Part shown: in pieces, positions 13,604 through 62,029 of the stretch
How positions within the stretch are numbered: the first letter of the stretch is position 1
Layout of the letters: each line of letters opens with the position of its first letter
DNA from: a bacterium
GTDB taxonomy: Bacteria; Hinthialibacterota; Hinthialibacteria; Hinthialibacterales; Hinthialibacteraceae
NCBI GenBank assembly: GCA_963662285.2
Contig: CAXXMV010000006.1
Location: 32,001-96,000 of the forward strand
Direction: 5' to 3'
Length of the DNA stretch: 64,000 nucleotides
Made by a program: the position numbers and the translations under genes
Notes under the pieces: model-generated
Told to the model about the DNA's origin: nothing
Seen by the model: only the letters and a program-made list of their open reading frames with translations
The model's database searches: none

Positions 13604-14644
13604 TCAGTGAATCATCCACTCTGCAACGCCGGTTCCTGCGGCAAATATCATCTTGCCGCGTGGAGCGTTATGGAATCCGCCTGGACCCATTTCGTTCCAG
13701 GAAATATATGACAGTCCTTTTTGTTCATGGACGGCGCCGTCAACATATCCACAGACGTTAAATAGCCATACATCACCGGGTTCTACCCAGACGCCATTCT
13801 CATCAGGAATCATAATCAGGTTTTCTAGCAGAATATCTACATCTTCAATAACTGTTACATCTGGCAATGCAGGAAAACTGAATTGTGAAAACGGGAAAGC
13901 AACTTCCATAACGGGAATGCCGAAAATCCCTTCTCCTGCTACAGCGCCTTCTACCAGGTGAGGAAGAGCTGCGAGCTTAAAAGGTTTAACATCAGCTGTA
14001 TCGGCTTCTGATGCATCGTAAATCGGATTCCACCCGCCGATATTTGCGGCGCCCAGGGTCCCTGTATGGAAGAATGGAGGACCTTCAGCTGTAGTTCTAG
14101 AGCCAAAATTGGAGTCAGCGTATATCTGACCATTTTCCTCATCGATTAACAAGGGGAAATAGCACATCTGATAAGCTGGGGGATTTTGTCCGGCTTCGTT
14201 GGGATAACCAGTCATTTCGTCGTCCCAATTGGGAGATATAAAGCACTCGAAATCCAGATTTGATCCAGCGCCCCAGCCAGCGTAACCTGTGTCATCGGCT
14301 TCAAGTAGAGCAACCATATCACCGCTGTAAACCCAACCATTCATATTGATGTACTGTAGTTCAGCGGTAATCAGTACATACAGATAATCATCATCCCACA
14401 GGGCGCGCCATTGCCATTTTTCATCGACAACTTTTCCCGCCCACTCTGGGGCGTTATCGCCGTGTTCTAATCCGTAAAACTCGCCAGTAAATACCGATCC
14501 AGCCCATTCTGCTTCGGTGAATTCACCGTCAATAACCGGGGCTGTTCCCGTTACCTTGTTAACTGTATATTCCCGTACTTCCTGAGACATAGCGCAAGGC
14601 GCCAGCAGCAATGCAAATAATATAAGTACCATAAGATTCTTCAT
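13604..14644 (-). CDS. Secreted CBM9/DOMON-like protein with C-terminal W-x-[LI]-[YH] tail
   Basis: Signal peptide; APVIDGEFTEAEW, RALWDDDYLYV; ends TGVAEWMIH. Confidence 0.7.
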   Translation of the reverse strand: MKNLMVLILFALLLAPCAMSQEVREYTVNKVTGTAPVIDGEFTEAEWAGSVFTGEFYGLEHGDNAPEWAGKVVDEKWQWRALWDDDYLYVLITAELQYINMNGWVYSGDMVALLEADDTGYAGWGAGSNLDFECFISPNWDDEMTGYPNEAGQNPPAYQMCYFPLLIDEENGQIYADSNFGSRTTAEGPPFFHTGTLGAANIGGWNPIYDASEADTADVKPFKLAALPHLVEGAVAGEGIFGIPVMEVAFPFSQFSFPALPDVTVIEDVDILLENLIMIPDENGVWVEPGDVWLFNVCGYVDGAVHEQKGLSYISWNEMGPGGFHNAPRGKMIFAAGTGVAEWMIH

Positions 14645-14798
14645 AACAAATACCCTTTCTTATATAAGTATTAATATTCATATATACATGAATATTAATT
14701 TACTATATACGATCAATCGAAAGAATATAATGTTGGATCAAGGTTTTTCACTTATTTTTTTGCTTTTTCCTACTGGGATAATATGTAGGAAAACCGGT

Positions 14799-16250
14799 TT
14801 ATTCTGTTGATGGTATTGAATCAGATTTCTTGCCGCCTCCAAATATAACAGCGGCTGTCAGGCCGAGGACGCAGATGGTGAAGATGATCCCATTGGGCGT
14901 ACGGCTGGTCCATGTGGCCCAGGGCCAGGGGAAACGGAAGAAGGCGTAATTTAACAGGAAATAAGTCCAGGCGCTGAGCAGTAATCCGAAGCGGGTAAGG
15001 TTATATCCAGTCTGTTTTGTCATCGCTTTACGTCCAAACCAGATGGCTGCGGCGGTTGATATTAGAAGCGGAACGATCAAGTAGACCAGCCATCCCGCAA
15101 CTGGAGCAATCGCCGCCTCTTGATAAACCAGTTGTTTGATAGTTTTGCCGCAGATTGGTATGAGGGTAATCGGAAATATCATTAAAAATGGCCACCACCT
15201 GGCGCCGGCGATAGCCACAACGGGTATTATCCCCATGATCAGGCCGATATCGTATACGCGGTCAACAATTCGGTAGGACATGAATTCAACCGCAATTAGT
15301 AAACATAGATGAATGACCAGTAAAATTGCTTCTATAGGAAGCGGCATACTTACAGGATCGGAGATGGCTGATATCTGGATTCTCTTACGGTTGAGCCACA
15401 GACCGAGTCCTAATGCAGCGCCCATAACAGCCCCGAAGGTGGTCTCCATCATATTCCACCAGTTGATTACATGTTGCAGTTGCAGGCCGAAGCCTTCGAG
15501 GAATAATTCAGGATTCCAGGCGTGGAAGGCCTGGATGCATTGTCCCAAGGGAAACCCGATAGCTCCGCCCAGAAAACCCCATAGCGCCAGGCGGTTAGCT
15601 AGAATATCTTTACGCAGCAATATCACATAAGCCATAAGCGCCATAAACGCTAACAACAGCCCACCCCAGCATTCGTGGCGTGGTTTTAATACACTTAAAA
15701 CCGCGTCTGGTTGCCAATACCAGGAGGATGAGAAATAAATGGCCGGAAGCATTTTATTTTCGGGATCAAAAGGCGAGTTCAGCAGATATAAGCCGAGAAA
15801 ATACATACCCACTATGGCGCACATAACCAGCAGCAACTCGCGGCAGCGGTAACGGATTCCACCCAATCCAATACCAAGGAACAGCCCGGCGAATCCGATC
15901 CAAAGGCCTCCTTTTATGGAGAGGCCAAGCAATCCCCAGCGTAATGCTTCCCAATTGTTGACTAGATCGGCATTGTGGGTTAATCCAACGGTTTGGCCAT
16001 AGGTCATGGAGCCGCCGAAACCCATAGCCACCGTTCCCCATGCCACCGCACGGGCTGCATTGAGCAGGGATGCTTTGGGGCATAATAGAAAAACCAGCGT
16101 GAGGCTGACGAGTAAACCTGCGATCATAGCGCCGGTTTCGTGTCCATATTGCCCGCGTATACCCCAGGCCATTCCGCCAGCCATCGCGGCGAAAAGTACG
16201 GGTTGCCAGAAACTAATATCTCTTATGGATGCATCGGATTGATTATTCAT
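14799..16250 (-). CDS. Hypothetical multi-pass membrane protein
   Basis: 483-aa ORF with more than 10 hydrophobic segments; AWGIRGQYGHETGAM, GGSMTYGQT, NWWNMME. Confidence 0.75.
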   Translation of the reverse strand: MNNQSDASIRDISFWQPVLFAAMAGGMAWGIRGQYGHETGAMIAGLLVSLTLVFLLCPKASLLNAARAVAWGTVAMGFGGSMTYGQTVGLTHNADLVNNWEALRWGLLGLSIKGGLWIGFAGLFLGIGLGGIRYRCRELLLVMCAIVGMYFLGLYLLNSPFDPENKMLPAIYFSSSWYWQPDAVLSVLKPRHECWGGLLLAFMALMAYVILLRKDILANRLALWGFLGGAIGFPLGQCIQAFHAWNPELFLEGFGLQLQHVINWWNMMETTFGAVMGAALGLGLWLNRKRIQISAISDPVSMPLPIEAILLVIHLCLLIAVEFMSYRIVDRVYDIGLIMGIIPVVAIAGARWWPFLMIFPITLIPICGKTIKQLVYQEAAIAPVAGWLVYLIVPLLISTAAAIWFGRKAMTKQTGYNLTRFGLLLSAWTYFLLNYAFFRFPWPWATWTSRTPNGIIFTICVLGLTAAVIFGGGKKSDSIPSTE

Positions 16251-16303
16251 TGGTTCTCATTCTCATTGGGATTTGATCAATCTTAAGAAATTGATAATTT
16301 ATT

Positions 16304-17740: not shown

Positions 17741-19411
17741 ATGAATATTTCGATATCCCGGCGTGAATTATTGTTATCAGCAGTGGCGGCGCCTGCTTTG
17801 GGGCGCGTGGGACATGCGCAAACATCGTCATCAGTTGTTGAACGTCATGATCAGAATCTTGAGAAAACACTACGGCGTCAGAATACCGATTCCGAAAGCC
17901 GCTGGTGCGGGGGAGTTCCTGACTCTTGGGAACTGTATCACTGTGGCTCTGCAGGAGGATTGCTGCATGCCGGAGCTGCATCCTATTTTCATCCGGAATC
18001 CAAGTTATATAAAAACCCACGCTTGTTTGAACGTATGAAACTGGCGGCGGGTTTTCTGGAACGGATGCAGACTGACCAGGGAAATATCGATCTGCTAACC
18101 ACTAATTTCAACTCGCCGCCGGATACCGGTTTTGTGGTTCATCGCGTAGCCAGCGCCGCCAAACTGGCGGCCATGAATAACGATAATAGCGTCTTGAAAT
18201 TGATGGAAACTTTCCTGCGCCGCGCCGGTTCTGGATTAGCCCAGGGGGGCATTCATACTCCAAACCACCGTTGGGTGGTTAGCGCGGCTCTGGCGCAAAT
18301 CAATGATGTCTTTCCTGATAAATGCTATGTACAACGCATCGATCAATGGCTTGCTGAAGGAATTGATATTGATGAAGAAGGCATGTTCATCGAACGCAGC
18401 ACGACGGTTTACAACACGGTATGCGACTATTCGTTTGTGGTGCTGGCCCATAAATTGAACCGCCCGGCATTACTGGAACCGGTGCGGAAGAACCTGGACG
18501 CCATGCTCTACCTGGTTCACCCTAATTTTGAGGTGGTGACCGAGATATCACGCCGCCAGGATTTGAATACACGGGCCGGGATGGATGGGTATTGGTTCCC
18601 GCTACGCTATATGGCGATTCATGATGATAATGAACAATACGCCGCTATTTTGAAATCATTGGAGCCGGATAGAATCAATTTAGGATTCATGATGGAATAT
18701 CCCGAACTGCAAAAAACACTGCCGAATCCAAGTCCAATTCCTGATAAATATAAAAAAGAATATCCACTCTCCGAAATCACCCGGATTCGCAACGGTAAAA
18801 CCAGCGCAACCATTATGCATCTCAACAACAACCGTTGGATGGCCGTGCGTCATGGCGACGCCGTCATCAACGCTATCCGTTTCGCTTCGGCCTTTTTCGG
18901 TAAAGGACAGTTCACCCCCGAACAGTTTGAAATGAAGCAGGGCGTTTATCATTTTAAGCAGGAATTAAGAGGCCCCTATTATCAACCTCTATCAGATCAA
19001 AATCTATTGCCGATTGACCGCGACAAATGGGGCAAATCGCGTTCGTATAGAGATCAAAGCGAAATTTGCGAAATGGTTTATGATTGTTATATTAAAGAGA
19101 CGGCAGGCGGTTTTGAGATTGATATCAGTGCGACTGGAACGAACAATGTTCCATTGGCGATAGAAATCAACCTGCGCGATGGAGGCGTTCTGGAGAAGGT
19201 TGATCCGGCGCCCAATGTCAATGACGCCTATCTGCTCAAAGATGGTTTCGCCAAATTTAGCATGGGGAACGACTGCATCAGTTTCGGCCCCGGTTGCTAT
19301 GAACATGCATATACTCAGATTCGAGGAGCGGAAGCCAAACTGTCAGGATCAAGCGTATACCTGACTGGTTTTACGCCATTCAAGCATACTTTGAATATAA
19401 GAATTGGTTGA
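17741..19411 (+). CDS. Tat-exported hypothetical protein (possible lyase-type alpha-toroid plus beta-sandwich)
   Basis: SRRELL twin-arginine leader; NFNSPPDTGF, GGIHTPNHRWV, ERSTTVYN; fold is a guess. Confidence 0.65.
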   Translation: MNISISRRELLLSAVAAPALGRVGHAQTSSSVVERHDQNLEKTLRRQNTDSESRWCGGVPDSWELYHCGSAGGLLHAGAASYFHPESKLYKNPRLFERMKLAAGFLERMQTDQGNIDLLTTNFNSPPDTGFVVHRVASAAKLAAMNNDNSVLKLMETFLRRAGSGLAQGGIHTPNHRWVVSAALAQINDVFPDKCYVQRIDQWLAEGIDIDEEGMFIERSTTVYNTVCDYSFVVLAHKLNRPALLEPVRKNLDAMLYLVHPNFEVVTEISRRQDLNTRAGMDGYWFPLRYMAIHDDNEQYAAILKSLEPDRINLGFMMEYPELQKTLPNPSPIPDKYKKEYPLSEITRIRNGKTSATIMHLNNNRWMAVRHGDAVINAIRFASAFFGKGQFTPEQFEMKQGVYHFKQELRGPYYQPLSDQNLLPIDRDKWGKSRSYRDQSEICEMVYDCYIKETAGGFEIDISATGTNNVPLAIEINLRDGGVLEKVDPAPNVNDAYLLKDGFAKFSMGNDCISFGPGCYEHAYTQIRGAEAKLSGSSVYLTGFTPFKHTLNIRIG

Positions 19412-19544: not shown

Positions 19545-22265
19545 ATGGTACGCGATACTAATGCAAGAAATAATATTATTACGGTTTATGCAATTGTAGG
19601 CTTGGTGGTTTTGAGTATTGCGTTTGATAGAACAGGGCTATGCGAAGAGATTGATTTATGGGCTGGCGCCTCTAATGGCGTTCTTGATGCTTATGAGATA
19701 TTACAAACCTGCCCGGACGATATCACTGCTGTTCTTAATTCTGAGCGGGATTCATCGCTGGATTATGGGCGTTTGATGGTCAATGGCGTTTCTTTGCCTC
19801 CAATCGGATTATGTCTATACAACCAATCCGGTCTCTCGACCACTATATCTACTGGTATGCCTGAATGGGATGAATTTATTGAAGGACAGATTGATCTGGT
19901 TCATGAATCGGGTATGAACTACATAAGTTTGAATATGTTCAATCCAACTGCATACAACGGGCCGGCTTTTCCATCGGCTGAGGATTTGCTTGATGAACAT
20001 AATTGGAATTGGCGAATGCGTGACGCAATGCTGGATTACGCCGCTCAACAAGGCGTTTCTATTATAATGAAGATGAATGTTCATTCGTTCCCGCATTGGT
20101 GGATGGAGCAATACCCGGAAGAACAACAAACCGATCAATATGGAGACAAATGGGATGTGATTAGTTTTGGGAACGAAGAGTACCGTGAAATTATCGGGAA
20201 AATCATTCTTACCATAGTTGAGCGTTATCAGAATCATCCTGCGGTACTGGGTTGGGATGTGCGAGTTGGCAGCACATCAGAGAATAATTATGCTCCACCA
20301 TATACGGTTGATATTCTTAATCCACCAACAACGGTTTGCGATTATTCCGATGGCGCTTTAGCCCGGTTTCATGAGTGGCTGCGCAACCGCTATGAAACAG
20401 ACGCAGCATTACAGGCGGCGTGGGGTGATGAGAGCGTGACATTGGACGCAGCCGCCATGCCTGAGCCGCTGGAGGATTTAGAAACCAGTTCTCCTCTTGA
20501 TGTTATTCCATACATCAATACAGCTGGCGATTCCCGGCGTTCGTTTTATGATTGGACGAAATTCCGTTTGGAACAGAAGAACGCAGATGCATTCTACTTT
20601 GGCGCCTTGGTGCGCCAGCAGGACCCCAACCATATTGTCATCACTGATCCAGCCTTTGCTCCACTTCAATTAGTTGATTTCAAGTCAGGGCAGAACGACG
20701 GTTCACTCTATTATCAATCAGATGTTTTTGATGGAATCAATTTACATCCCAGAATCGGACACGAAGATGAATCCCGCAATTTTAATCAATCACGGTTTGG
20801 GCTATATAGTTTTAACAGATATACGCGGCATAACAATAAACTGGGCTTCTGGAGCATGGAAGAAACCAGCGAAATGATCAGTGATATTGATGAAGATAAT
20901 TTATGGAAACTGAAAAGCATAATGGCCATGAACGCCGCCACCGGGATAGGGCATGGCATGGTGAGCGGCAACGAAGACGCGGATGATGAAGATAAGATGC
21001 TGCCGGCGTGGTCCAGCGTGGAGTTTGATGAATTCAAAAAGTACCGCAGCATCTTTTCGGCGCCGAACCTGGCCCCGGGGCGTGCGGGTGTTGCGGTTTT
21101 AAGTGATGAAACTAATCAAGGATATTACTATTGGCTTTCGGGTAACCTCCGCCCCATGGGAGACCGGGTGACCTTTTTGGAATCGCTTTTCGATCAGGCG
21201 CTGGATTATGATGTTATAACTTCCGAAGAAATAATTGCCAATCCAGATGTAGTCGATCAGTTTCAGGCGGTAATGGCGATAGATCTTCCCCGTCTGCCGC
21301 TCGAAGCAGCCAATATATTAGCCGCTTACCGGGATGGCGGTGGCGGATTGTTTATCGGCGGTATGACTGGAATCTATGATATATATGGAAATCCCGACGC
21401 AAGTTCATTGGAGGCATTACTGGGCGCCTCGATCAGTGAGTTCAATCAAGACGCTGCTGCTATAAGCGCATGGGGATTTGATGGGGACGATCCATTACTG
21501 GATGATATGACTCTATCGAGAATCAACAATATGTACTATATCCCCAAATTCGATCTCGAAGCCAGCGGATATGAAGCGCTGGGGCATTTATTGAGCGATC
21601 CCGATGCAGCAACTGTTGGTCGAAAAGATAAAACTGTGTTCTGGTTTCCAAAGATTAGCATTGATAAGCCGGAAATCATTGATCCATTCCAGCAGAATCT
21701 CTGGGAATTATGGGGCGTTAGTCCTTTAGCAATCGCCGAAGACGGCGTTGAAGCGTGCGGAGGGAATTATCGATTTGTTTTTACCCGGAATACGGTCGAT
21801 GTGACTGTTCCATTTGAACCACAGGAAGCGGATGCCGGAACCTTAGTATGGGATTGGTTGTCTATGGCGCAGGTAGATATTATAGAAGCCGGAGAAACTG
21901 CTGAAGCGCATTTCACAACCAGCGAAAATGAAAGTTACTTCCTGGGATTCACTCCCATGACTCAAGAATTGCAATTGGTAGCCGCACAGGGAGCATATAT
22001 TGATCGAATAGAACGGAATGATAATAATAACCGATTGTCAGCAGCCCTATATAGAGCAACTCTACCGGATGAAATAACGGTAGTGGTTTATTCGGGCGAT
22101 CAAGATATTGAATCGGTGGGCGTGGTTGGGGGCGAGTTAATCGATTTGCAACTAAATGATACTGAAACGGCTTGGATTATTAGAGTGAGGCCGAGTAATA
22201 GCGTGTTGACAATTAATGCATATACTTTTGAATTAGTAAATGTGCAAGTTTGGGAGTTATACTGA
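19545..22265 (+). CDS. Secreted GH42-like (beta-galactosidase-like) glycoside hydrolase with C-terminal W-x-L-Y tail
   Basis: N-terminal hydrophobic leader; PHWWMEQYPE, ERYQNHPAVLGWDV, CDYS...FHEWLRNRY...LQAAWG; trimerization-type domain; ends VNVQVWELY. Confidence 0.75.
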   Translation: MVRDTNARNNIITVYAIVGLVVLSIAFDRTGLCEEIDLWAGASNGVLDAYEILQTCPDDITAVLNSERDSSLDYGRLMVNGVSLPPIGLCLYNQSGLSTTISTGMPEWDEFIEGQIDLVHESGMNYISLNMFNPTAYNGPAFPSAEDLLDEHNWNWRMRDAMLDYAAQQGVSIIMKMNVHSFPHWWMEQYPEEQQTDQYGDKWDVISFGNEEYREIIGKIILTIVERYQNHPAVLGWDVRVGSTSENNYAPPYTVDILNPPTTVCDYSDGALARFHEWLRNRYETDAALQAAWGDESVTLDAAAMPEPLEDLETSSPLDVIPYINTAGDSRRSFYDWTKFRLEQKNADAFYFGALVRQQDPNHIVITDPAFAPLQLVDFKSGQNDGSLYYQSDVFDGINLHPRIGHEDESRNFNQSRFGLYSFNRYTRHNNKLGFWSMEETSEMISDIDEDNLWKLKSIMAMNAATGIGHGMVSGNEDADDEDKMLPAWSSVEFDEFKKYRSIFSAPNLAPGRAGVAVLSDETNQGYYYWLSGNLRPMGDRVTFLESLFDQALDYDVITSEEIIANPDVVDQFQAVMAIDLPRLPLEAANILAAYRDGGGGLFIGGMTGIYDIYGNPDASSLEALLGASISEFNQDAAAISAWGFDGDDPLLDDMTLSRINNMYYIPKFDLEASGYEALGHLLSDPDAATVGRKDKTVFWFPKISIDKPEIIDPFQQNLWELWGVSPLAIAEDGVEACGGNYRFVFTRNTVDVTVPFEPQEADAGTLVWDWLSMAQVDIIEAGETAEAHFTTSENESYFLGFTPMTQELQLVAAQGAYIDRIERNDNNNRLSAALYRATLPDEITVVVYSGDQDIESVGVVGGELIDLQLNDTETAWIIRVRPSNSVLTINAYTFELVNVQVWELY

Positions 22266-22333: not shown

Positions 22334-22900
22334 ATGTTGAACCGCGCTTTTACATTAATCGAACTACTCATCGTTGTAGCAATTATTGGAATCTTGGCAG
22401 CTATTGCCGTGCCGAATTTTTTGAATGCTCAGATCCGGGCTAAAATAGCGGGAACTCAGGCTGATATGCGAAACCTGGGTACGGCGATAGAGAGTTATCG
22501 TCTGGATAACAATAATCCACCACGAACCTACACGCTTGGTTGTTATACCGGGACATGTCAGGGAGTTCAGATGTCCCGTTATCAACGTTTAGCTCAACTT
22601 ACCACGCCGGTTTCATTTATGAGTTCGGTGCCTAAAGATAAGTTCAACCGCATTGAATTTGAAACTACTGATCCAGTTAATACCTATCCATATTGGGAGC
22701 CGCGATTCGCGGATACTTACCGTAATCCTAATCAGTTAGGAAGGCATTTCAAAGACCAGCAATCACCCAATAGGTTATGGGCCTTGATGAGTTATGGTCC
22801 TGATGGCGACTTCGAAGCAGCAGGCGGCGGCGATTTAGCGCCATTCGAAGTATCTAATGGATTAAACTCAAACGGAGATATTATGCGTTTTGGTTTGTAG
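22334..22900 (+). CDS. Prepilin-type N-terminal cleavage/methylation domain protein (pseudopilin-like)
   Basis: RAFTLIELLIVVAIIGILAAIAVPNF; C-terminal SYGPD...SNGLNSNGDI. Confidence 0.9.
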   Translation: MLNRAFTLIELLIVVAIIGILAAIAVPNFLNAQIRAKIAGTQADMRNLGTAIESYRLDNNNPPRTYTLGCYTGTCQGVQMSRYQRLAQLTTPVSFMSSVPKDKFNRIEFETTDPVNTYPYWEPRFADTYRNPNQLGRHFKDQQSPNRLWALMSYGPDGDFEAAGGGDLAPFEVSNGLNSNGDIMRFGL

Positions 22901-27141: not shown

Positions 27142-27753
27142 TTATGGCAGCGTGTGGGTTTCCAGATTTTCGCTGCCGCTTCCGGCCAGGATGGATAGGT
27201 CTTTGGTAAGGAATCCCTCTTTTTCTGATGCGATGATGTCGCCGGACGAGGTGGTTCCATTGCTGGGATCGTAGGGCCGCATAGGATACCCCTGCCGCGT
27301 TTTGTCCGGCCCCCAGCCCCATATCCACCAGCTGCCGTGGTATTGATCTTTGCCGGTTCCTTCTTTTTGGGCTACGTAAAGATACCATCCCACTAACAGT
27401 CCGTCGCCCCGGTTGTCGCCCAGGTTCACTCCGGGGATATCGATGAATGGGTCGAAGGGAATCGAACTTATATAGGCAACGGGTGATGTTATGGGCGAGA
27501 TGTTATAAGTCGCGTTCAATTGTTCTTCGGGGCATAAACCACAGGGCCACCCCGGTTGACGAAACGGCGGGCTGTTATGATCTATGCGATACATATCAAC
27601 TGCTTGGGCTAGAGTGCGGACATCGGCCATAGTACGGCTGATCAATGCGCGTAACCGGGCATTGATAAAATTGGGAACGGCGATGGCGGCGAGTATCCCG
27701 ATGATGGCGACGACGATCAACAATTCAATTAGCGTGAAACCTTTGCGTTTCAT
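27142..27753 (-). CDS. Prepilin-type N-terminal cleavage/methylation domain protein (pseudopilin-like)
   Basis: MKRKGFTLIELLIVVAIIGILAAIAVPNF; GWGPD...YDPSNGTTSSGDI. Confidence 0.9.
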   Translation of the reverse strand: MKRKGFTLIELLIVVAIIGILAAIAVPNFINARLRALISRTMADVRTLAQAVDMYRIDHNSPPFRQPGWPCGLCPEEQLNATYNISPITSPVAYISSIPFDPFIDIPGVNLGDNRGDGLLVGWYLYVAQKEGTGKDQYHGSWWIWGWGPDKTRQGYPMRPYDPSNGTTSSGDIIASEKEGFLTKDLSILAGSGSENLETHTLP

Positions 27754-27925
27754 GAGAAATATCTCCCATTGGATTAATGCGAATGTGAACTGAATAATGA
27801 GAATCGCTCTACAAAATATCAGATAGGCCTTGGTTTGTATATATAACTTTTCAAGAATGAAGCAAAAAGGGAGTATAGAAAACATTAATCCCATACTCCC
27901 TGGATAAAACTAATTGAAACTACCC

Positions 27926-43164: not shown

Positions 43165-45189
43165 TTAATACAAATCCCAATTGGAAAGGCCTGTCTCTCC
43201 TCTTGTCTGGTAGACGTAAATCCGTCGTGCGTCCAGATCGGAAATAAACACAAAGGTTTCGTTTTGTGCAGTGTGCATGACAACCGCATCGGTGGGAGTT
43301 ACGAATGGACCGTTTGGAGATTCACTGCCATCCACCAGGGCCGCCGGATTTTCGGTGTCTGAAGGATTATAAAAAGCCATCACTGGTTGAGCGCCGGAAT
43401 AGTCAGGAACGATGATTTGATTGTTAACTGCATCGTACTCAATCAGCTGGCTATTAGCGCCGTAAGTTCCCGCTATTGCGCCTTGGGGAACGAAATGATT
43501 CTGAAAGTCCGAGTAACCATCCAGGTTATCGGCATTACCTCCGCTAAGTAAATTAACGCTGCCTAGCGGTTCACCCGCTTTTTGGCTGTTTCGCGAAATA
43601 TAGATATCTCCGGTATTTGGATTATAAGCCAGGTCGCGTTGATAGGTTTGGCCTCCACTAACTGCATGCAGCGATGCGCCATCCGATGAATTGAGGAATT
43701 CAACAGAATTAAAAGTGCTCACCGCAATAACTCCATCGGTTATGAAATCCACTCCATTGATACGTTTGCCGTAAGAAATGATTCCTCCCCCGAAATCAGC
43801 ATCCAATTCGAAATTAGGGGCTGGACTGAATTTACGCAAATTAGCGGTTCCGGCATTGCCTGTTTCCAAGGCGAGATAAACCGAACCATTGTTATCAACC
43901 ACGATTCCCATAAATCCACGGGAACCTGGAACATCAGTATCGGCGCCATCATCGATCATCTTATGGTTTTCCATGTTGTTGGCGTTTAGCGGATCGGCAA
44001 TGTAATAGCATCCCGTCATATTCGCTTCAGGAACAGAAAATAGCGTATAGTAAAGGCCGCCATTGGAATCAGCCGCCAAGGCCATGGGCGCTCCGGTTTC
44101 GGCCACTGTCTCAAAATCCATAACGTAGGTAAACGGATGATTAGACGTATTATCTATGGCGCCACTATCAGAATACTCACCTTCTCCACCCATCAAAAAG
44201 ACCATGATGCGGCCAGCCGCACTATCTGTAATAAAAACATAGGTTTCCCCGGCCTCATTAGTCCAGGCGACTGCATCCGAGGGACTGGAGAGTGGACCGT
44301 TTGGGGATTTGTAACCATACAAATTCATCACTGGCGCGCTTGTATCCGAAGGATTATAAAAAGCGATTGACTGGGGAGACGTCTCAAAATCAGGAATAAG
44401 AATCAAATCATTTACAGCATCATAATCAAGCAACTGGCCTTTGACTCCATAAGTTCCTCCTGATCCTCCCTGGGGAATAAAACCAGGCTGAATCTCTGCA
44501 TAACCTGATAAATCGTCCGGGGATCCACCTGCCAGCAGACTGGCGGAATTCAAGACGCCATCCACGCTCCGGTTTTTGGCTATATAAATTTCGTGCGTAT
44601 CTGGATTATATGCAACATCTCTTTGATATGTTTCTCCATCAGTTACTTCGTGAAGTATCTCACCGGTATTTGCATCTACGAATTGGATTGTGGAGAAAGT
44701 CGACACGGCTATTAGATCATCTGTGAGGATATCAACACCGGTATACCTGGCGCCGAAGATCATTCCCAAGTCAGCAAACTCATCCACCCAATCAAAGTCG
44801 GGAGCGGGACTTCGTTTTGTAATTGATGAAGTAGAATCGCTGCCGCTGTCCATTGCAAGATACACATTGCCGGAATTATCGACTGCCACGCCGACAAATC
44901 CCCGGCCTGCGGGAACGCTGGTATCATAACCGCCGTCCACCATAATATGTTCTTCCGGCGGTGGAGCGTCGAGTGGATTGGCAACATAAAAACAACCGGA
45001 AGTATCGGGATCGGGAGAGGATAACAGGGTGTAATAAATACCTCCATTTGAATCCGCTGCAATAGCTATCGGCTGTCCGAGATCTAAAGGAGTGGAAAAC
45101 TCGGTGACATATTTGAAAGATATAGGTTGAGCATAAACTCCAATAACGAGGAAAATCGACAAGAAAATACAAATTGAAATACGTTTCAT
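43165..45189 (-). CDS. Secreted protein with two tandem NHL/beta-propeller-like units and C-terminal W-x-L-Y tail
   Basis: Signal peptide VYA-Q; duplicated AADSNGG.YYTL, TYQRD.AYNP.T, SPNGP; ends TGLSNWDLY. Confidence 0.75.
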   Translation of the reverse strand: MKRISICIFLSIFLVIGVYAQPISFKYVTEFSTPLDLGQPIAIAADSNGGIYYTLLSSPDPDTSGCFYVANPLDAPPPEEHIMVDGGYDTSVPAGRGFVGVAVDNSGNVYLAMDSGSDSTSSITKRSPAPDFDWVDEFADLGMIFGARYTGVDILTDDLIAVSTFSTIQFVDANTGEILHEVTDGETYQRDVAYNPDTHEIYIAKNRSVDGVLNSASLLAGGSPDDLSGYAEIQPGFIPQGGSGGTYGVKGQLLDYDAVNDLILIPDFETSPQSIAFYNPSDTSAPVMNLYGYKSPNGPLSSPSDAVAWTNEAGETYVFITDSAAGRIMVFLMGGEGEYSDSGAIDNTSNHPFTYVMDFETVAETGAPMALAADSNGGLYYTLFSVPEANMTGCYYIADPLNANNMENHKMIDDGADTDVPGSRGFMGIVVDNNGSVYLALETGNAGTANLRKFSPAPNFELDADFGGGIISYGKRINGVDFITDGVIAVSTFNSVEFLNSSDGASLHAVSGGQTYQRDLAYNPNTGDIYISRNSQKAGEPLGSVNLLSGGNADNLDGYSDFQNHFVPQGAIAGTYGANSQLIEYDAVNNQIIVPDYSGAQPVMAFYNPSDTENPAALVDGSESPNGPFVTPTDAVVMHTAQNETFVFISDLDARRIYVYQTRGETGLSNWDLY

Positions 45190-45603: not shown

Positions 45604-47034
45604 TTACACAAACCGCAGGGCGTTTTTGACTGCGAAGCGTTTGATCTTGCTGAAGGTTACCGGGGTGCATGGGCCTTCGCCTGTCGCGAAGGCGATGGTT
45701 AGGGCTGTATCGCCTTCTCCGCCGTTGCCCAGCGCTGTTCCGCAAGGTCCGTTGGCGACGAATAAGCCGGTGCGCATCAGTTTGGCGAATGTGGTGACGC
45801 GATCCATGCGCTGGCTGTGAATGATGGCGGTGTGACCGAAACCGTGTTCAGCTTGTTTGGAGTATTGCATCGCTTCTTCAAACGAGTTGACGCGTATAAT
45901 AGCCAAGACCGGCATCAGCATTTCGTGTTGAACGAAGGGATGGTTGCTATCCGTTTCGCAGATTAACAATTCACAGTTGTTTGGCACCTGGACTCCAACG
46001 GCCTGAGCGAGGACGGCGGCGTCTTTGCCGATGAAATCGCGGTTGACCAGGTCATCCGATGTGATAGTGGCGCGAACCAGCGCGTCGCGTTGCTGCGCAT
46101 TAAGCAGGTAGGCGCCGCGTTGTTGAATGGCTTGCATGAACTGATCATAAACCTGTGTAAGGACGAAACATTCCTTCTCGCATACGCAAGGCATGTTGTT
46201 GTCGAAGGTGGCGCCGGTATAAACGCTGTCAGCGGCGTTAGTCAAATCGGCTGTCTCATCTACGATTACCGGAGGATTGCCCGGCCCGGCTACGATAGCG
46301 CGATTGGGGCTTTGCATAGCCGCTTTAACCACAGCAGGGCCGCCAGTAGCCACTAAGAGTTCGATATCTTCATGGTTCATGATGATCTTTGCTGTGCGCA
46401 GGGTTGGTTTGCTAACCGATGTCATCAGGTTAGCCGGAGCGCCAACTGAGACTAAAGCGCGGTTGATGTCCTGCATGCTCTTCAGGGTGCATTCAACAGC
46501 GCCGGGGTGCGGCGCGAAAACAATGGCGTTGCCAGCGGAAAGCATGGCGATGGCATGGTTGATAACCGTAGCGACCGGATTGGTGGAAGGCGTAATAGTG
46601 CCGATTACGCCAAAGGGCACATACTCTTCCATCATGATTCCATTGTCACCCGTCACGCAATGCGTGGTTAGTTCCTCCATGCCGGGAGTTTTTTCAATTG
46701 CCAGACTATTTTTTAATATCTTATGATCCACCCGCCCCATGTTGGTGTCGCGCACTGTCAGTTCCGCCCATTCGCGGTTTTTCTGACGTGAGGTTTCACG
46801 GATCACTTCGATATAGTATTTGCGCTTTTCAAGTGTTATTTCGCGGAATTGATCAGAAGCGATTTTGGCTGCGCGGATAGCGTCTTCGATATCTTCGAAT
46901 ACGCCGTCGCGTCCACCGCTAACGGCGCCGCCCGCACATGCCGCCACATGACCGCTGCTGGATGGCGAACCGGTCTGCTTTTGTAATTCTTGTATAACTT
47001 TCTGAACAATTTGAGAAATTTGCTGATCATCCAT
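45604..47034 (-). CDS. Acylating aldehyde dehydrogenase (EutE/PduP family) with encapsulation peptide
   Basis: PFGVIGTITPSTNP, ATGGPAVV, AGPGNPP, FDNNMPC, AEHGFGHTA; N-terminal ISQIVQKVIQEL. Confidence 0.93.
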   Translation of the reverse strand: MDDQQISQIVQKVIQELQKQTGSPSSSGHVAACAGGAVSGGRDGVFEDIEDAIRAAKIASDQFREITLEKRKYYIEVIRETSRQKNREWAELTVRDTNMGRVDHKILKNSLAIEKTPGMEELTTHCVTGDNGIMMEEYVPFGVIGTITPSTNPVATVINHAIAMLSAGNAIVFAPHPGAVECTLKSMQDINRALVSVGAPANLMTSVSKPTLRTAKIIMNHEDIELLVATGGPAVVKAAMQSPNRAIVAGPGNPPVIVDETADLTNAADSVYTGATFDNNMPCVCEKECFVLTQVYDQFMQAIQQRGAYLLNAQQRDALVRATITSDDLVNRDFIGKDAAVLAQAVGVQVPNNCELLICETDSNHPFVQHEMLMPVLAIIRVNSFEEAMQYSKQAEHGFGHTAIIHSQRMDRVTTFAKLMRTGLFVANGPCGTALGNGGEGDTALTIAFATGEGPCTPVTFSKIKRFAVKNALRFV

Positions 47035-47040
47035 TATTTC

Positions 47041-47967
47041 TTATCTTCTTTCTCTGGATTGGGGAACGATGATCACTTCTATGCCCCGTTTATGCAATAA
47101 TTCCAAAGCCAGTGGGGTTATGAGTCCACCGCGCGAGGCTTTAACTACCGGGCCGCTGAGTTTGGCCGCGTCTTCTTCAGTTAATAAACAGGTAATAAGG
47201 TCTGCGCCGCTTTCCGCCCGGTTTAAGGTAACGCTGAATACTTCTTTAACGGCGTCTTCAGCAGGCATCAGTTTCATGCCCATTTTGGCCAGTTGCTCGC
47301 GGTATTTATCCAGTACATCCTGGATTCCGGGAACCTGGTTGCCGCAGACTACGCAGGCGGTTGGTTCTAATCCATCGTTAGACGCAACCACATTGGCTTT
47401 TTGAGCCAAAGCCGAAATGGTCATGTTAAGCGTCAACGAATCGGTGATGCCTAGAGCCAGTTTGGCTGCATGGGTGCGGCTGATGGATGGTATAAAGACC
47501 GACGAATAGCGCGACAGATCGTAGATGATCTCCCGCACTTCGTTTGGTTGATCTATAGTTCGTATGCCCAGCGCTTCAACCTCATCAGAAGAGATGACGT
47601 ACTGAGCGCTATTGGAGAATATGGCGTCCAGACGTACTCCTGCTGCGCGCCACTGGCGCATGGCTTCTGCCAGAACATCCCATTTTTCACGCGCTCCAGT
47701 AAAGAGAAGCAATATAGCCGGGCCGTCCAGTTTGGGTGGAGTTGGCTCGGCTGGCTTTACAAGAGGAACTTTTGCTGCGACTGAAGTTGATGAAATAGCA
47801 GGTATGCTAGGCGGAATCGGAGCGCTGCACGCTGGACCCTGGCAAGCGTTGGCGTCCAGGGTAACATTTTGATCGGGTGGTAAAGAGGCTTCTTCGGCGC
47901 GTTGACGTTCGCCAAGCGCTTTAGCGACCTCTTCAGTTATGATGCGTTCCAATTCATGAAAATCCAT
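47041..47967 (-). CDS. BMC-associated flavoprotein-like protein with encapsulation peptide
   Basis: LERIITEEVAKAL; SRTHAAKLALGITD; C-terminal LLTEEDA...LITPLALE. Confidence 0.7.
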   Translation of the reverse strand: MDFHELERIITEEVAKALGERQRAEEASLPPDQNVTLDANACQGPACSAPIPPSIPAISSTSVAAKVPLVKPAEPTPPKLDGPAILLLFTGAREKWDVLAEAMRQWRAAGVRLDAIFSNSAQYVISSDEVEALGIRTIDQPNEVREIIYDLSRYSSVFIPSISRTHAAKLALGITDSLTLNMTISALAQKANVVASNDGLEPTACVVCGNQVPGIQDVLDKYREQLAKMGMKLMPAEDAVKEVFSVTLNRAESGADLITCLLTEEDAAKLSGPVVKASRGGLITPLALELLHKRGIEVIIVPQSRERR

Positions 47968-48056
47968 ATCAGATTGCCGATCCAATAATATCAAATGATG
48001 TAAAACAAATTATTATTTAATGTACACTTAAATATACACTCTTAATTAATTCTCAA

Positions 48057-48752
48057 TTAAGAGATAATTTCCGCTTTTTCCCCGCCGCGAAGACCAGCGG
48101 CGTTACCGTCATCAGTGTCAAGATGCATTTCATCGAGAAAAGCCTCTCTGACCCTGAGTTGCACATCTTCAAAGACTGTCTTTTTGGCGGTTTCGATACG
48201 GACTTTAATAGTCTGGTTGTCAGTCAGTCCCCATTTTTCTGCGGATGTCGTAGATAGATGGAGATGGCGGTTGGCCTGTATGACTCCTCTTTCAAGATGA
48301 ACCACCCCTACCGGACCAGCCAGAATCAAGCGTGAACTTCCTTCATGGTTACCAGATGGTTTAACAGGGGGATCTATGCCCAAATAGATGGCGTCAGTAC
48401 GGGATACCTCAACTTGCGTTGCATCCCGCAATGGTCCAAGCACCCTTACGGCGCCCAGGCATCGCATTCGGGGGCCAATCAGAGTAACCGTCTGGTTCGC
48501 TGCAAATTCGCCGGGTTGATAGAGGCCTTTAAGCTCCTCTAACTCAAAACCCGGACCATATAGCACATCCAGGTCTTTGCGGCATAGGTGTAGATGGCGA
48601 ACCGAAACATTGACGGGAACCATTTTGCGTCCCGGTTGCTGCACTCCAAACTGAGGCGAGGCTGAGGCAGGTTGCTGCGCCTGCCGCATACGCGACACAA
48701 CGCGTTGAACCACCTGATCAACCAAAGAGTTGTCGATGAAGGAATCCACCAT
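48057..48752 (-). CDS. pduL: Phosphate propanoyltransferase (PduL phosphotransacylase)
   Basis: VSVRHLHL, LYQPGEFAA, VRVLGPLR..TQVEVS.TDA, RHLH, EMHLDTDDGNA. Confidence 0.93.
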   Translation of the reverse strand: MVDSFIDNSLVDQVVQRVVSRMRQAQQPASASPQFGVQQPGRKMVPVNVSVRHLHLCRKDLDVLYGPGFELEELKGLYQPGEFAANQTVTLIGPRMRCLGAVRVLGPLRDATQVEVSRTDAIYLGIDPPVKPSGNHEGSSRLILAGPVGVVHLERGVIQANRHLHLSTTSAEKWGLTDNQTIKVRIETAKKTVFEDVQLRVREAFLDEMHLDTDDGNAAGLRGGEKAEIIS

Positions 48753-48768
48753 CGTTTTTTAGTCCTAT

Positions 48769-48801
48769 AAAAACCAAGCGTGGCTTCTGGCCACGCTTGG
48801 T
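48769..48801 (-). terminator. Intra-operon hairpin/terminator between shell gene and pduL
   Basis: ACCAAGCGTGGC-5 nt-GCCACGCTTGGT followed by a T run on the minus strand. Confidence 0.6.
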
Positions 48802-48865
48802 GGAATCGTCCGCTTGAAATGCAGAATGACGCTGCTTGTGACAATCCAGAGATAAAGCGTGCGCC

Positions 48866-49159
48866 TTATCCGTTTACAGGAAGAATTCCTTCGATGTCTG
48901 AATGAGGCCGGGGAATAACGTGAACCGAAACCACTTCACCCACTTTGCGGGCGGCGGCGGCTCCAGCGTCTGTAGCTGCTTTGACGGCGCCTACATCACC
49001 TCTTACCATAACTGTTACGTATCCGCCTCCGATTTTTTCTTTACCAACCAGAGTTACGCTTGCGGCTTTGACCATGGCGTCGGCTGCTTCTACAGCGCCA
49101 ACTAATCCACGAGTTTCAACAAGTCCCAGGGCTTTACCTTCCACGGGTTTGTCCTCCAT
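48866..49159 (-). CDS. BMC-H shell protein (PduA/EutM-like)
   Basis: [40 protein letters not shown]. Confidence 0.96.
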
Positions 49160-52376: not shown

Positions 52377-53681
52377 ATGCCCCAACAGGAAAATGGATTG
52401 CCCCAATTACAGCAGCAAATGATGAAGCCCTTATCTAATGTACTGGTCAAACCGACCAGCGCTGATTGCAACCTGGAATGCGGATACTGCTTCTATTTAG
52501 AAAAATCCGAACTCTATCCCGAATCGCGCATCCACCGCATGTCGGATGAAGTGATGGATGAGATGGTTCGCCAGCTGATGCAGGCCGGACAAGCATCAGT
52601 CTCTTTTGGCTGGCAGGGCGGCGAACCGACTCTGATGGGCGTTGATTTCTACCGTAAAGCCGTCGCCGCCCAGCAGAAATATGGCCTGCCCGGTCAGACG
52701 GTGGGCAATGGCTTCCAAACCAATGGCGTTTTGATAGATGAAGAATGGTGCGACTTGCTGAGAGAATATAATTTCCTCATCGGGCTATCCATCGACGGAC
52801 CGGAGCATGTTCATGATAAATACCGCTTGACGGCTGGCGGGCGTCCATCCTGGCGAAAAGTGTATGACAGCGCAAAGTTGATGCTTAAATCTGACGTGGC
52901 GGTTAACAGTCTGGTGGTGGTTAATGATTATTCCGTGCTTTATGCTGAAGAGATATATACTTTCCTCAGAGACGCCGGTTTCGAGTTTTTGCAATTCATT
53001 CCTTGCGTGGAACCTGATCCTAATGATCGATCCAAAGTAGCGCCATTTTCGGTCAGCCCTGAACAATACGGCGAATTTCTCTGTAAGATTTTCGATTGCT
53101 GGAAAAAAGATTTCGTTGATGGACGCCCTAGAATATCGGTGCGTTTTTTCGATTCGGTTTTCCATACTTATGTGGGTTTCATGCCGCCGGAATGCACCCT
53201 TCTGGAAGAGTGCGGCTGTTATGTCGTCATCGAACATAACGGAGACGTCTATTCCTGCGATTTCTTTGTTGAACCGAAATGGAAACTTGGCAATGTCATG
53301 ACTGGCAATCTGCTTGAAATGCTCAATAGCCCCAGGCAGAATGAGTTTGGGCGGGTCAAAAGCCAGTTGCCTCAAAAATGCGTAGCATGTAAATACCTGC
53401 TGCATTGCCGGGGAGGATGCCCCAAAGACCGCATTAATAATCCCCAATCCGGCGGCTTGGATCATTTCTGTACATCACATTTGATGTTCTTCGAGCACGC
53501 CGATGCCGACCTGAAAGCCTTGGCTGAAGATTGGATGACTGAGCAGCAACAATACGCAGAAGAGTCGAATCGAAGACTGGAAGAACTTACCACAAAAACA
53601 GAGCAAGCCAGGGTTGGGCGTAATGAACCATGCCCCTGCGGCAGCGGAAAGAAATTCAAAAAATGTTGTGGTCGCGCGTAA
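52377..53681 (+). CDS. Anaerobic sulfatase maturase (radical SAM/SPASM) with C-terminal SEC-C motif
   Basis: KPTSADCNLECGYCFY, WQGGEPTL, EHNGDVYSCDF, CRGGCPK; GRNEPCPCGSGKKFKKCC. Confidence 0.92.
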   Translation: MPQQENGLPQLQQQMMKPLSNVLVKPTSADCNLECGYCFYLEKSELYPESRIHRMSDEVMDEMVRQLMQAGQASVSFGWQGGEPTLMGVDFYRKAVAAQQKYGLPGQTVGNGFQTNGVLIDEEWCDLLREYNFLIGLSIDGPEHVHDKYRLTAGGRPSWRKVYDSAKLMLKSDVAVNSLVVVNDYSVLYAEEIYTFLRDAGFEFLQFIPCVEPDPNDRSKVAPFSVSPEQYGEFLCKIFDCWKKDFVDGRPRISVRFFDSVFHTYVGFMPPECTLLEECGCYVVIEHNGDVYSCDFFVEPKWKLGNVMTGNLLEMLNSPRQNEFGRVKSQLPQKCVACKYLLHCRGGCPKDRINNPQSGGLDHFCTSHLMFFEHADADLKALAEDWMTEQQQYAEESNRRLEELTTKTEQARVGRNEPCPCGSGKKFKKCCGRA

Positions 53682-55381: not shown

Positions 55382-56446
55382 TTAATGTAGTTCCCAATTT
55401 AAGCCGGAAGGAACAACAGCTGCCGGTTCATTAACGTAAATACCGAACAAGTGCCCGATATTAATGTTCCAGGCTAAACCGTCAACGTTACAGTCAACGA
55501 CCATATCTTGTAATTCGAGAACATCGCCTGATTTTTCATACCAATAAATCTGACTCCAATTGCCGCCTTCTTCGTTGGTTTTAAAGAAATCAAGATTTTC
55601 ATCGCCATCTATATCCCCACAGGTTAATGCTTCTGAACCTCCACCTGTAGGCGTCGAATGTACGGTATTTAGGGATGTGGAGAACACGCCAGGTTCGGTT
55701 TGTTCGATTATGTTAATGCTGGATACGGTGGGATCACTTCCATAAAACACTTGAGCAATGGCATAATCGATATCGCCATCGCCATCATAATCACAGGCTG
55801 TAACTCCAGCTACTCCGCCAAAACCGGGAAATGTTCCGCTCCAGTTTAGTAGTTTGGAATAGACCAGCGTTGGGTTATCTTCCAAAGTTAAAGTTCCGTC
55901 AGCATTTACTGTAAGTACGCCGTCATAAACTTCGCACATATTGCTGACAGGACCGGCGGCATCGTTGTCCTCAATCCAGACCATGTGAACTTCATCGCCA
56001 ATTGCGTAAAGATCCAAGCCAAGGGGGCTGACATCGGCGGGAGTAGTATAGATTGGATCTTGTACAATGGCCCAAAAACCGTTTTCATCCATTTTCCGAT
56101 GTTGGAACTGAGTTCCCAGGCTGGGAAAATGCGATTCGCCTTTTGAAACAGCGATAACGGCGCTAACTTCGCCATTGATTTCAAGCATGGACATACCCAT
56201 ATCGAAGACTCTGCCACTGTATTCTTCTCCCTGATAAAAGGGTAATTCCAGAGGCTGTTCCAGAGCATCCCAGTAGTTGTTTTCTATATCATAAGTCCAT
56301 TCGATAATAGAATAACCATACTCTGGTCCATAAGAATCGAATTCAACCGTCCAGAGATTAAATCCATTCACCACGCCTTCCACCGCAAACGATGAAACGC
56401 TTGCTATTCCAATAAATAGCGCTACCCAAAAGATTTGTTTTTTCAT
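55382..56446 (-). CDS. Secreted acidic protein with FG-GAP/VCBS-like Ca-binding motifs and C-terminal W-x-L-H tail
   Basis: Signal peptide SFA-V; DYDGDGDID, DIDGDENLDF; ends PSGLNWELH. Confidence 0.7.
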   Translation of the reverse strand: MKKQIFWVALFIGIASVSSFAVEGVVNGFNLWTVEFDSYGPEYGYSIIEWTYDIENNYWDALEQPLELPFYQGEEYSGRVFDMGMSMLEINGEVSAVIAVSKGESHFPSLGTQFQHRKMDENGFWAIVQDPIYTTPADVSPLGLDLYAIGDEVHMVWIEDNDAAGPVSNMCEVYDGVLTVNADGTLTLEDNPTLVYSKLLNWSGTFPGFGGVAGVTACDYDGDGDIDYAIAQVFYGSDPTVSSINIIEQTEPGVFSTSLNTVHSTPTGGGSEALTCGDIDGDENLDFFKTNEEGGNWSQIYWYEKSGDVLELQDMVVDCNVDGLAWNINIGHLFGIYVNEPAAVVPSGLNWELH

Positions 56447-60966: not shown

Positions 60967-61117
60967 TCATAGGCTGGTTTATTCTCAGTATTGGGATTCT
61001 TTCATAAATGGTTACGCCTAGTCAACCTGCTTCATCGGAAAAAACCTAGTCATGATATACAAATTTTGATATTATTAAATATTATTTATCTATTTAATAA
61101 ACCTATCAGGAGAAATC

Positions 61118-62029
61118 ATGAAGCAACTATTCGCTATTACTACGGCATTTCTACTTACGTGTCTCTTCATTTTCATCATTCCCACTCAAGCATCAGCTGT
61201 TGAAGATGATATTGTTTTCATTCATCATTCTTGTGGAAATAACTTTCTTAACCAGGGACTCAAAACTCAGTTATTAGCCAAAGATTACATCGACGAAGTG
61301 AACGATATCTACTACGGCGACGATTTGCAACCCGACGATGGGCGTCCCGATTCCTTGGGCGGGACTCCAGGCGATAACACCAATATGAACCATTGGGTAA
61401 TGTGGTTCAATGATTATCTATCTGGAATACAAACATTCGATTGCAGCAACGGCAGCAACCGGATCATCATGTTTAAGAGCTGCTACCCCATCAGTAATAT
61501 ATCCAGCGATGGACGCGAGCCGGGCGACCCTTTCAGTTCTTCGCAAACAATGGCCAATTATAAGAGCGTTTTCCGCAAGTATAACGATGCAGATGGCGTA
61601 TATACCCGCAGCGGCAATGATTATAATCCGTTGGAGCAGGTATTCGCTCAAAATCCAGATATCCTGTTTATCGCCGTGACCGCTCCTCCGCGTCATTTCG
61701 GACCTTCCGATGCTACCAATGATACGGAGGCGCAACGGGCGCGTAATTTCAATAATTGGCTGAAAAACGAATGGCTGGATGGTTATAGGGCTTCTATTAT
61801 AGGGCAGATGAATGTGGCCGTATTTGACTGGTTTGATGTCTTGGCTTATCCAAGCGATCATGCCGTTCATCCAAACCGTCTTAAAGAAGAATACGGCGGA
61901 GCTAATGGCGATTCGCACCCTAATTCGACCGCTAACAGTGAATCAGCAGAGGTTTTTTCGACATTAATTGATCAAGCATACACAGAATGGATCGAAATTA
62001 CATCGGTTAAAAACTGGAGTCTTTATTAG
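61118..62029 (+). CDS. Secreted SGNH-like hypothetical protein with C-terminal W-x-L-Y tail
   Basis: Signal peptide ASA-V; FIHHSCG, MFKSCYP, GDSHPN; ends ITSVKNWSLY. Confidence 0.7.
   Translation: MKQLFAITTAFLLTCLFIFIIPTQASAVEDDIVFIHHSCGNNFLNQGLKTQLLAKDYIDEVNDIYYGDDLQPDDGRPDSLGGTPGDNTNMNHWVMWFNDYLSGIQTFDCSNGSNRIIMFKSCYPISNISSDGREPGDPFSSSQTMANYKSVFRKYNDADGVYTRSGNDYNPLEQVFAQNPDILFIAVTAPPRHFGPSDATNDTEAQRARNFNNWLKNEWLDGYRASIIGQMNVAVFDWFDVLAYPSDHAVHPNRLKEEYGGANGDSHPNSTANSESAEVFSTLIDQAYTEWIEITSVKNWSLY

Follow-up and report, generated by a model that had tools for sequence, protein, structure and literature searches.

The stretch of DNA analysed here (the window) comprises 64,000 nucleotides (nt) from a bacterium of the phylum Hinthialibacterota, corresponding to C6:32001-96000 of a source genome (G000) of 7.29 Mb in 8 contigs that is 92.5% complete, and the element of interest is a short C-terminal tail shared by otherwise dissimilar exported proteins. 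Five window genes, listed with the other features in Table 1, encode proteins with a hydrophobic N-terminal leader (5/5) that terminate in GTGVAEWMIH (the 346-residue protein), LVNVQVWELY (906 residues), ETGLSNWDLY (674 residues), VPSGLNWELH (354 residues), and ITSVKNWSLY (303 residues). These ends were singled out as a candidate protein-sorting signal by the original prediction, which was made from the letters of the window alone, and the translations read exactly as it claimed. NuoH (...AIWAVL), the twin-arginine translocation (Tat)-leader protein at 17741-19411, the DUF1080 protein at 27926-28690, and the only dockerin protein of the window (11175-11822) were likewise said not to be full matches, and their translated ends confirm that they lack the tail. 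A sixth tagged gene, starting at 62382, runs beyond the window; its stop codon lies 94 nt past the window end and its C-terminus, ...TGPVSVSHWELH, is read as ...VSVSHWELH.

A C-terminus-locked tail on exported proteins

Genes of the source genome were called with a crude script of our own, utilising codon-usage scoring and a greedy choice of non-overlapping open reading frames (ORFs), which yielded 5182 proteins covering 87% of the DNA. An end of the form W.[LIMV][YHF] was present in 129 of the 5182, where composition, or the rate at which the motif occurs inside proteins, would predict 2.0-2.2. The consensus, [P/G]-T-x-V-x-[D/N/E]-W-x-[L/I]-[Y/F/H], was derived from these 129 strict-motif proteins, in which Trp at -4 is fixed by the selecting motif: Thr occupies -9 in 84, Val or Ile -7 in 98 and 22, Asp, Asn, or Glu -5 in 39, 26, and 22, Ser, Glu, or Met -3 in 47, 27, and 19, Leu or Ile -2 in 79 and 29, and Tyr, Phe, or His -1 in 85, 24, and 20, with Pro or Gly common at -10. 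When a matrix was built from the 129 tails, 149 proteins scored at least 8 bits, with fewer than one expected. The 10-column matrix was also scanned, at 10 bits or more, over every position up to 400 residues from the C-terminal end, giving 144 matches at the very end (offset 0), 29 one residue before it (offset 1), a single one two residues before it, and 25 in total over offsets 5-400. Because the matches concentrate at offsets 0-1, the motif is a feature of the C-terminus and not a general sequence motif.

One or two extra residues thus follow the aromatic in 30 of 174 tails, and the single extras (n=29) are Glu in 12, Asp in 4, Asn in 4, Arg in 3, Gln in 3, Lys in 2, and Tyr in 1, so that 16 of the 29 are Glu or Asp; such one-residue extensions recur in orthologues of other genomes. 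The prediction that Trp always stands at -4 therefore holds for the five window proteins but not for the genome as a whole, where about one tail in six carries one extra residue. The tolerance of an acidic extra residue suggests that negative charge near the aromatic may matter more than the exact terminal register.

Enrichment among proteins with signal peptides had been named beforehand as a test of the prediction. Under a crude leader test, which asks for a leader without any membrane span after it, 107 of 129 tagged proteins pass as compared with 1460 of 5053 untagged ones (Fisher p 4e-36), the 22 tagged proteins that fail being mostly proteins with visible leaders or long proteins with a falsely called span; 25 of the 29 proteins with offset-1 tails also pass. 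A crude lipobox is rarer among the tagged proteins (6/149 against 136/1440), as is a Tat-like motif (3/149 against 95/1440).

The 149 tagged proteins fall into 86 families by all-against-all BLAST clustering, 59 of them without a paralogue (“family 0” of this clustering was a single-linkage artefact and was dropped). Carriers, as judged in part by a Pfam scan of 43 source-genome proteins outside the window together with the window proteins, include CBM9-like modules (tagged in 10/10), a right-handed beta-helix family (3/3), the beta-lactamase fold (3/12), and WD40 propellers (3/71), along with a CotH plus lamin-tail domain (LTD) protein, a doubled periplasmic-binding-protein fold, FG-GAP, GH42-like, and DUF11 proteins, and a 257-residue jelly roll resembling legume lectins and calreticulin (Foldseek E 1e-8, TM ~0.5). 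Among the large exported families, no tag was found in sulfatases (47), DUF1080/3-keto-disaccharide hydrolases (43), or Gfo/Idh/MocA oxidoreductases (104), nor in PQQ-type propellers, CarboxypepD_reg proteins, or BNR proteins. Given that 9.4% of leader proteins are tagged, the absence of tags from all 59 leader-bearing sulfatase and DUF1080 members has a p of ~0.003. To judge by the behaviour of such families elsewhere, the tagged families may be those destined for the surface or the medium and the untagged families those that stay in the periplasm.

Conservation of the tail was followed in two carriers. It is kept in all 43 homologues found for the 346-residue window protein (36-89% identity), with Trp invariant in 37/37 aligned (36-90% identity) and the next residue Met in at least 90%. 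The 257-residue lectin-like protein has 16 homologues, 15 of which were aligned and all retain the tail; Trp is invariant in its 16 orthologues, and a conserved ...IDN-x-x-x-GP... stands ahead of the tail. Tail-less relatives of both were sought, and none was present among the 43 homologues of the former or the 15 aligned of the latter. The GH42-like window protein has only three distant relatives (P0049-P0051), each ending in a different motif from that of the tail: these are proteins of ~1530 residues with GH42 and DUF3604 that end in ...FLPLV[IM][KR]N, once with a few residues more, and this end may be the C-terminal label of another lineage.

AlphaFold models were made for the same two carriers. 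In the 346-residue protein (mean predicted local distance difference test score, pLDDT, 90.8) the last strand spans residues 330-335 and residues 339-346 score below 50, and in the 257-residue protein (pLDDT 84.7) the last strand spans 235-245 and residues 248-257 score below 50. The last strand stops 3-4 residues ahead of the tail in both. As both models end the fold before a disordered tail, the tail in these two cases hangs from the fold instead of contributing a strand to it, in keeping with the original prediction. Were the tail laid out as a notional strand, one face would show Thr -9, Val -7, and Tyr -1 and the other Trp -4 and Leu -2; conserved residues on both faces would suggest that the tail is buried in a groove or pocket and does not simply pair along an edge.

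The further examples that a sorting signal would call for number about 170 in the source genome and extend across the phylum. A DNA pattern, T.V..W.[LIMF]Y-stop, was present in 33 of 35 genomes of the phylum, with only 0-1 matches per genome for the reversed-pattern control; copies per genome range from 7 to 38 in family f1 (38 in the source genome) and from 0 to 17 in the other families. With a looser pattern, genome G002 rose above its control (13 against 4) and G001 remained at background (5 against 3). The latter, of family f4 and 84% complete, is the only genome with tail counts at background and also has the fewest pilin-pattern matches (28); two of its ORFs end in V-A-S-W-R-L-Y-stop, possibly a local variant of the tail. 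Its use as a tag-free comparator was dropped on account of its completeness and this potential W-R-L-Y variant.

A stricter pattern, T.V.DWS[LF]Y-TAA, gave 14 matches in 185,579 species genomes, all 14 being in-frame ends of long ORFs with typical upstream context. Five of the ~10 source genomes of these matches were rescanned and held 3-21 copies against 0 for the control, one of them being the same genome as G024 of the phylum set. No match of this strict scan fell in a record named for another phylum, except for two labelled Omnitrophota by their submitters, of which one is again G024; the same label is carried by some homologues of the 346-residue window protein. The OLB16/SURF_12 lineage is described by Seymour et al. 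2023 (PMC10066038) as having been wrongly assigned to Omnitrophica. In a metagenome collection the strict pattern matched nine times, and eight of these matches look like true tails. As far as the strict scan sees, the tail is restricted to the phylum.

Comparison with known sorting and docking systems

In its architecture the tail resembles no described bacterial sorting signal. The original prediction had left room for an existing family model, and no Pfam or NCBIfam model was found over the tail in the proteins scanned (for NCBIfam, the five window proteins at E up to 1). No description of the tail was found in the open-access literature on Hinthialibacterota, OLB16, or conserved C-terminal motifs, and the term “C-terminal” occurs 0 times in the text of Williams et al. 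2022 (PMC9324843).

Among the closest known systems are the tripartite signals (LPXTG/sortase, PEP-CTERM/exosortase, GlyGly-CTERM/rhombosortase, and MYXO-CTERM/myxosortase), in which a short C-terminal signature is likewise shared by many unrelated leader proteins of one lineage; they too were reportedly discovered by recurrence across paralogue-free families (Haft). In these signals the motif precedes a transmembrane helix and then a cluster of basic residues, and a membrane enzyme of their own cleaves them, whereas the present tail measures 9-10 residues, ends in Y/F/H or one residue beyond, and has neither helix nor basic cluster. The search for processing enzymes in the 92.5% complete genome took in sortase (PF04203, 0 matches, with positive controls in three genomes) and exosortase (PF09721, 0 matches, with a positive control in one), rhombosortase and myxosortase lying outside it.

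The C-terminal domain (CTD) of the type 9 secretion system (T9SS; type A, TIGR04183, and type B) similarly marks Sec-exported, folded cargo of glycan degraders, as proposed for the tail, and directs outer-membrane transit and surface attachment. It is, however, a folded beta-sandwich of ~70-100 residues, as opposed to nine disordered residues placed straight after the cargo fold. TIGR04183 gave 0 matches in the genome, its controls being equally silent; SprA (TIGR04189) gave only a 15-bit fragment match against a cut-off of 200, and PorV (NF033710) gave 0 matches, no control genome for these two having a T9SS.

An extreme C-terminal aromatic on an envelope protein is also a property of the outer-membrane beta-signal (BamA/BamD) and of the DegS-activating Y-x-F ends. 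The beta-signal has alternating hydrophobics at 0, -2, and -4 and forms the last strand of a barrel. The hydrophobics of the tail are instead the last residue and those 1, 3, and 6 before it, and its carriers are soluble lectin-like and CBM9-like folds (two modelled). The earlier exclusion of PEP-CTERM, LPXTG, the T9SS CTD, and the BamA beta-signal holds.

The closest working analogy is offered by peroxisomal targeting signal 1 (PTS1), read by PEX5, and by encapsulin cargo-loading peptides, which are linear, ~3-10 residues long, locked to the C-terminus, unstructured, and portable. These systems act in the cytoplasm or in eukaryotes; the cargo here has Sec leaders and would lie beyond the inner membrane, and there is no sequence similarity. 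Lastly, dockerin-cohesin pairs and WxL domains resemble what is proposed for the tail in achieving non-covalent docking of exported glycan-active proteins, and the WxL domain also contains W-x-L. Both are folded modules, dockerins of ~60-70 residues and WxL domains (Gram-positive) of more than 100, and neither had a Pfam match over any tail in the 5 + 18 + 20 proteins scanned.

A proposed receptor-read label and its rivals

On balance, the tail is probably a portable C-terminal address label read by a receptor that decides the step following Sec export. This reading fits best because the tail is linear, locked to the C-terminus, and under strong selection, is found on many unrelated folds, and is confined to a functional subset of exported proteins. 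In such a label, T-x-V-x-[D/N/E]-W-x-[L/I]-[Y/F/H] would come after a short linker of Gly, Pro, and acidic residues and would at times be lengthened by a single residue, mostly an acidic one. Its carriers would cross the inner membrane by Sec, rarely by Tat, and fold in the periplasm with the flexible tail left exposed on the folded cargo. A dedicated receptor would then capture the tail, probably in a hydrophobic pocket or groove for the Trp, the Leu/Ile, and the terminal aromatic, and capture would decide a step beyond the periplasm, in which the protein either passes through the outer membrane or is kept on the cell surface or a scaffold. In this way the label may mark a subset of exported proteins (lectin-like, CBM9-like, beta-helix, CotH/LTD) while being absent from the presumably periplasmic enzyme families. 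The tail is itself a real, portable, family-selective, and conserved feature, specific to exported proteins, locked to their C-termini, and unstructured in the models; its reading by a receptor and its control over localisation are what we infer.

To our knowledge, the choice that diderm bacteria make of periplasmic proteins for the surface or the medium is understood for a few systems only, and we know of no linear signal for type 2 secretion. Throughout this phylum of uncultured polysaccharide degraders, ~3% of the proteins bear a tiny label locked to the C-terminus, and the reader of that label, once found, would define a new envelope-sorting or docking system. Knowledge of the reader would also improve the prediction of which enzymes these bacteria release or display, and the tail could become a tag of minimal length for protein targeting in these bacteria.

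Several points weigh against this reading. No receptor, protease, or translocon for the tail was identified, and the tagged genes do not cluster with the eight secretin genes or the seven PDZ proteins of the genome; the only BLAST family enriched within two genes of tagged genes is the pilin-like family discussed below. Where the tagged and untagged families reside is assumed from the behaviour of such families elsewhere. Readers that depend on a free carboxylate in a fixed register fit poorly with the extra residue seen in about one tail in six. Structural models cover two proteins, and a low pLDDT is no proof of a free tail in vivo, while crude scripts of our own supplied the gene calls, the test for leaders, and the clustering into families. 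The sorting role proposed by the original prediction is therefore supported in part: the tail is tied to leaders, widespread, and disordered, but neither reader nor machinery was found.

The proposal that survives best beside it, albeit unlikely, concerns the route: the tail would couple its cargo to the greatly expanded set of GspG-like pseudopilins, in a system resembling type 2 secretion or type IV pili, as a linear export handle or for display of enzymes on pseudopilus fibres. The pilin-like family (GspG-like, prepilin-type) numbers 129 proteins, which match N_methyl and, weakly, T2SSG or DUF1559; of the 124 that are untagged, 32 lie within two genes of a tagged gene (p 3e-7). A pilin gene directly adjoins 24 of 149 tagged genes, as compared with 81 of 1340 genes for other leader proteins (p 5e-5) and 106 of the remaining 3577, and the pairing takes its typical form, with the pilin gene in the same direction and no more than 450 nt downstream, for 13 of 149 as compared with 19 of 1340 (odds ratio 6.6, p 4e-6), with gaps of 0, -3, 7, and 13 nt in some pairs. 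One such pair, formed by the GH42-like gene and the prepilin-type gene behind it, is found in the window. The absence of detectable T9SS parts alongside the eight secretin genes also agrees with a pseudopilin route, as does a tagged, leader-bearing protein of 371 residues (G000:C6:918229-919344, minus strand, locus L021), which has no Pfam match and consists of two pilin-family globular domains without the pilin N-terminal helix.

The same route is weakened by several observations. About 84% of tagged genes have no pilin neighbour, and the adjacency is not exclusive to tagged genes, because the second prepilin-type gene of the window adjoins the untagged DUF1080 protein. In other genomes the arrangement was seen at 2/20 sites in G008, 0/20 in G004, 1/12 other genome loci, and 0/9 metagenome loci (two loci duplicating G008 sites were left out), or 3/61 pooled outside the source genome (p 0.03-0.06 against the source-genome background). 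Pilin-pattern matches number 28-206 per genome in the phylum and do not track tag counts over the 35 genomes: families f2 and f3 have 69-206 pilin-pattern matches with only 0-6 tag matches, and within f1 the tag-pilin correlation of 0.68 is no better than that with genome size (0.79). Given the weak replication and the uncoupled copy numbers, the pilin link is a lead and not a result. Co-folding of residues 22-346 of the tagged 346-residue protein with residues 31-188 of a window pilin gave scores of 0.00 and 0.13 against a mark of 0.32, which speaks neither for nor against binding.

A bolder form of this proposal, distinctly unlikely, would make the tail the first linear, transferable export or display signal of a type 2 secretion/pseudopilus-type pathway, with the ~100 GspG-like pseudopilins per genome acting as carriers or fibres that capture W-x-L-Y. 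Were this true, pseudopilins that move or display lectins and glycan-degrading enzymes would do the work of the cellulosome or the T9SS with a pilus as its basis.

As side observations on these gene families, the GspG-like prepilin family comprises 116-129 genes in the source genome, with a core ...TPVSY.SS.P.DPF... and an end ...Y..SNG..S.GDI..., and two of the eight secretin (PF00263) genes have frames of ~1000 residues; no T9SS, sortase, or exosortase is detectable in that genome. A six-member family of 152-residue proteins near tagged genes was also considered and set aside as not convincing (p 1e-3 before multiple-test correction).

It is also rather doubtful that the tail is a quality-control tag, that is, a hydrophobic C-terminal handle gripped by a PDZ protease or chaperone of the periplasm (of the Prc/CtpA or DegP type) and so governing turnover or folding in place of location. 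Envelope PDZ domains bind peptides with a terminal aromatic preceded by Leu or Ile, as in the tail, and the seven PDZ-domain proteins encoded in the genome together with the disordered, accessible tail of the models accord with such a handle. Nine conserved positions, including Thr -9 and Val -7, nevertheless exceed the needs of a PDZ C-terminal motif, the extended tails (30/174) place residues after the aromatic, the tail occurs in one phylum only while such proteases are universal, and the strict family selectivity suggests localisation rather than turnover.

Very unlikely in turn is self-assembly, in which tails would bind each other, or the lectin-like and CBM modules of other tagged proteins, to build multi-enzyme assemblies with no dedicated receptor. 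Many carriers are indeed lectin-like or carbohydrate-binding, and the tail is made up largely of residues that favour beta structure (T, V, W, L/I, Y), but the carrier folds differ greatly and conservation on both faces of the notional strand is a misfit for simple edge pairing. Finally, although many carriers end in a beta-sandwich with a last strand ...[IV]DN[IFV]x[IV]... just ahead of the tail, the notion that the tail is a normal part of the structure, such as the last strand or a cap in related domains, or that it is an artefact of chance or composition, is close to refuted by the 86 families of unrelated folds, the disorder in two of two confident models, the 129 tails against 2 expected, and the near-silent reversed-pattern control.

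Other features of the window

The coordinates of the tagged genes, their tails, and neighbouring features are collected in Table 1. For the 303-residue protein, the closest Atlas clusters are SGNH/GDSL-like (score 0.92-0.94).

Table 1. Tail-bearing genes and associated features in the 64-kb window (window coordinates).
Feature	Position	Strand	Basis or remark
Tagged exported protein, 346 residues, CBM9-like	13604..14644	-	Translation; weak CBM9_1 match
Tail GVAEWMIH of 346-residue protein	coding ~13607-13633	-	Translation
Tagged exported GH42-like protein, 906 residues	19545..22265	+	Translation; Glyco_hydro_42 match 5.7e-18
Tail NVQVWELY of 906-residue protein	coding ~22236-22262	+	Translation
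Prepilin-type (GspG-like) gene	22334..22900	+	69 nt downstream of tagged 19545-22265; N_methyl 4e-7, weak T2SSG
Second prepilin-type gene	27142..27894	-	N_methyl 2.4e-9; adjoins untagged DUF1080 protein 27926-28690 (3keto-disac_hyd 1.2e-32)
Tagged exported protein, 674 residues, duplicated beta-propeller-like	43165..45189	-	Translation; SBBP, NHL, MRJP-type repeat matches
Tail TGLSNWDLY of 674-residue protein	coding ~43168-43194	-	Translation
Aldehyde dehydrogenase (BMC locus)	45604..47034	-	
Flavoprotein-like gene (BMC locus)		-	
Phosphate propanoyltransferase PTAC (BMC locus)	48057..48752	-	
BMC shell protein (BMC locus)	48866..49159	-	
Tagged exported FG-GAP repeat protein, 354 residues	55382..56446	-	Translation; FG-GAP_3 match 9e-8
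Tail SGLNWELH of 354-residue protein	coding ~55385-55411	-	Translation
Tagged exported protein, 303 residues, SGNH-hydrolase-like (lead only)	61118..62029	+	Translation; no Pfam match
Tail TSVKNWSLY of 303-residue protein	coding ~62000-62026	+	Translation
Sixth tagged gene, 570 residues, DUF11-like	62382..64000, cut by window end	+	Gene call; DUF11 match

Part of a bacterial microcompartment (BMC) locus, spanning 45604-49159 on the minus strand, adjoins the tagged gene of the 674-residue protein. Positions 28001-32000 form an island of low GC content (33% against ~45% in the flanks), which carries a GNAT/PIN-like gene encoding 693 residues (28967-31048) with a small gene downstream and may be acquired DNA. 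Further along, a radical SAM/SPASM protein is encoded at 52377-53681 on the plus strand, with a SEC-C zinc motif at its C-terminus.

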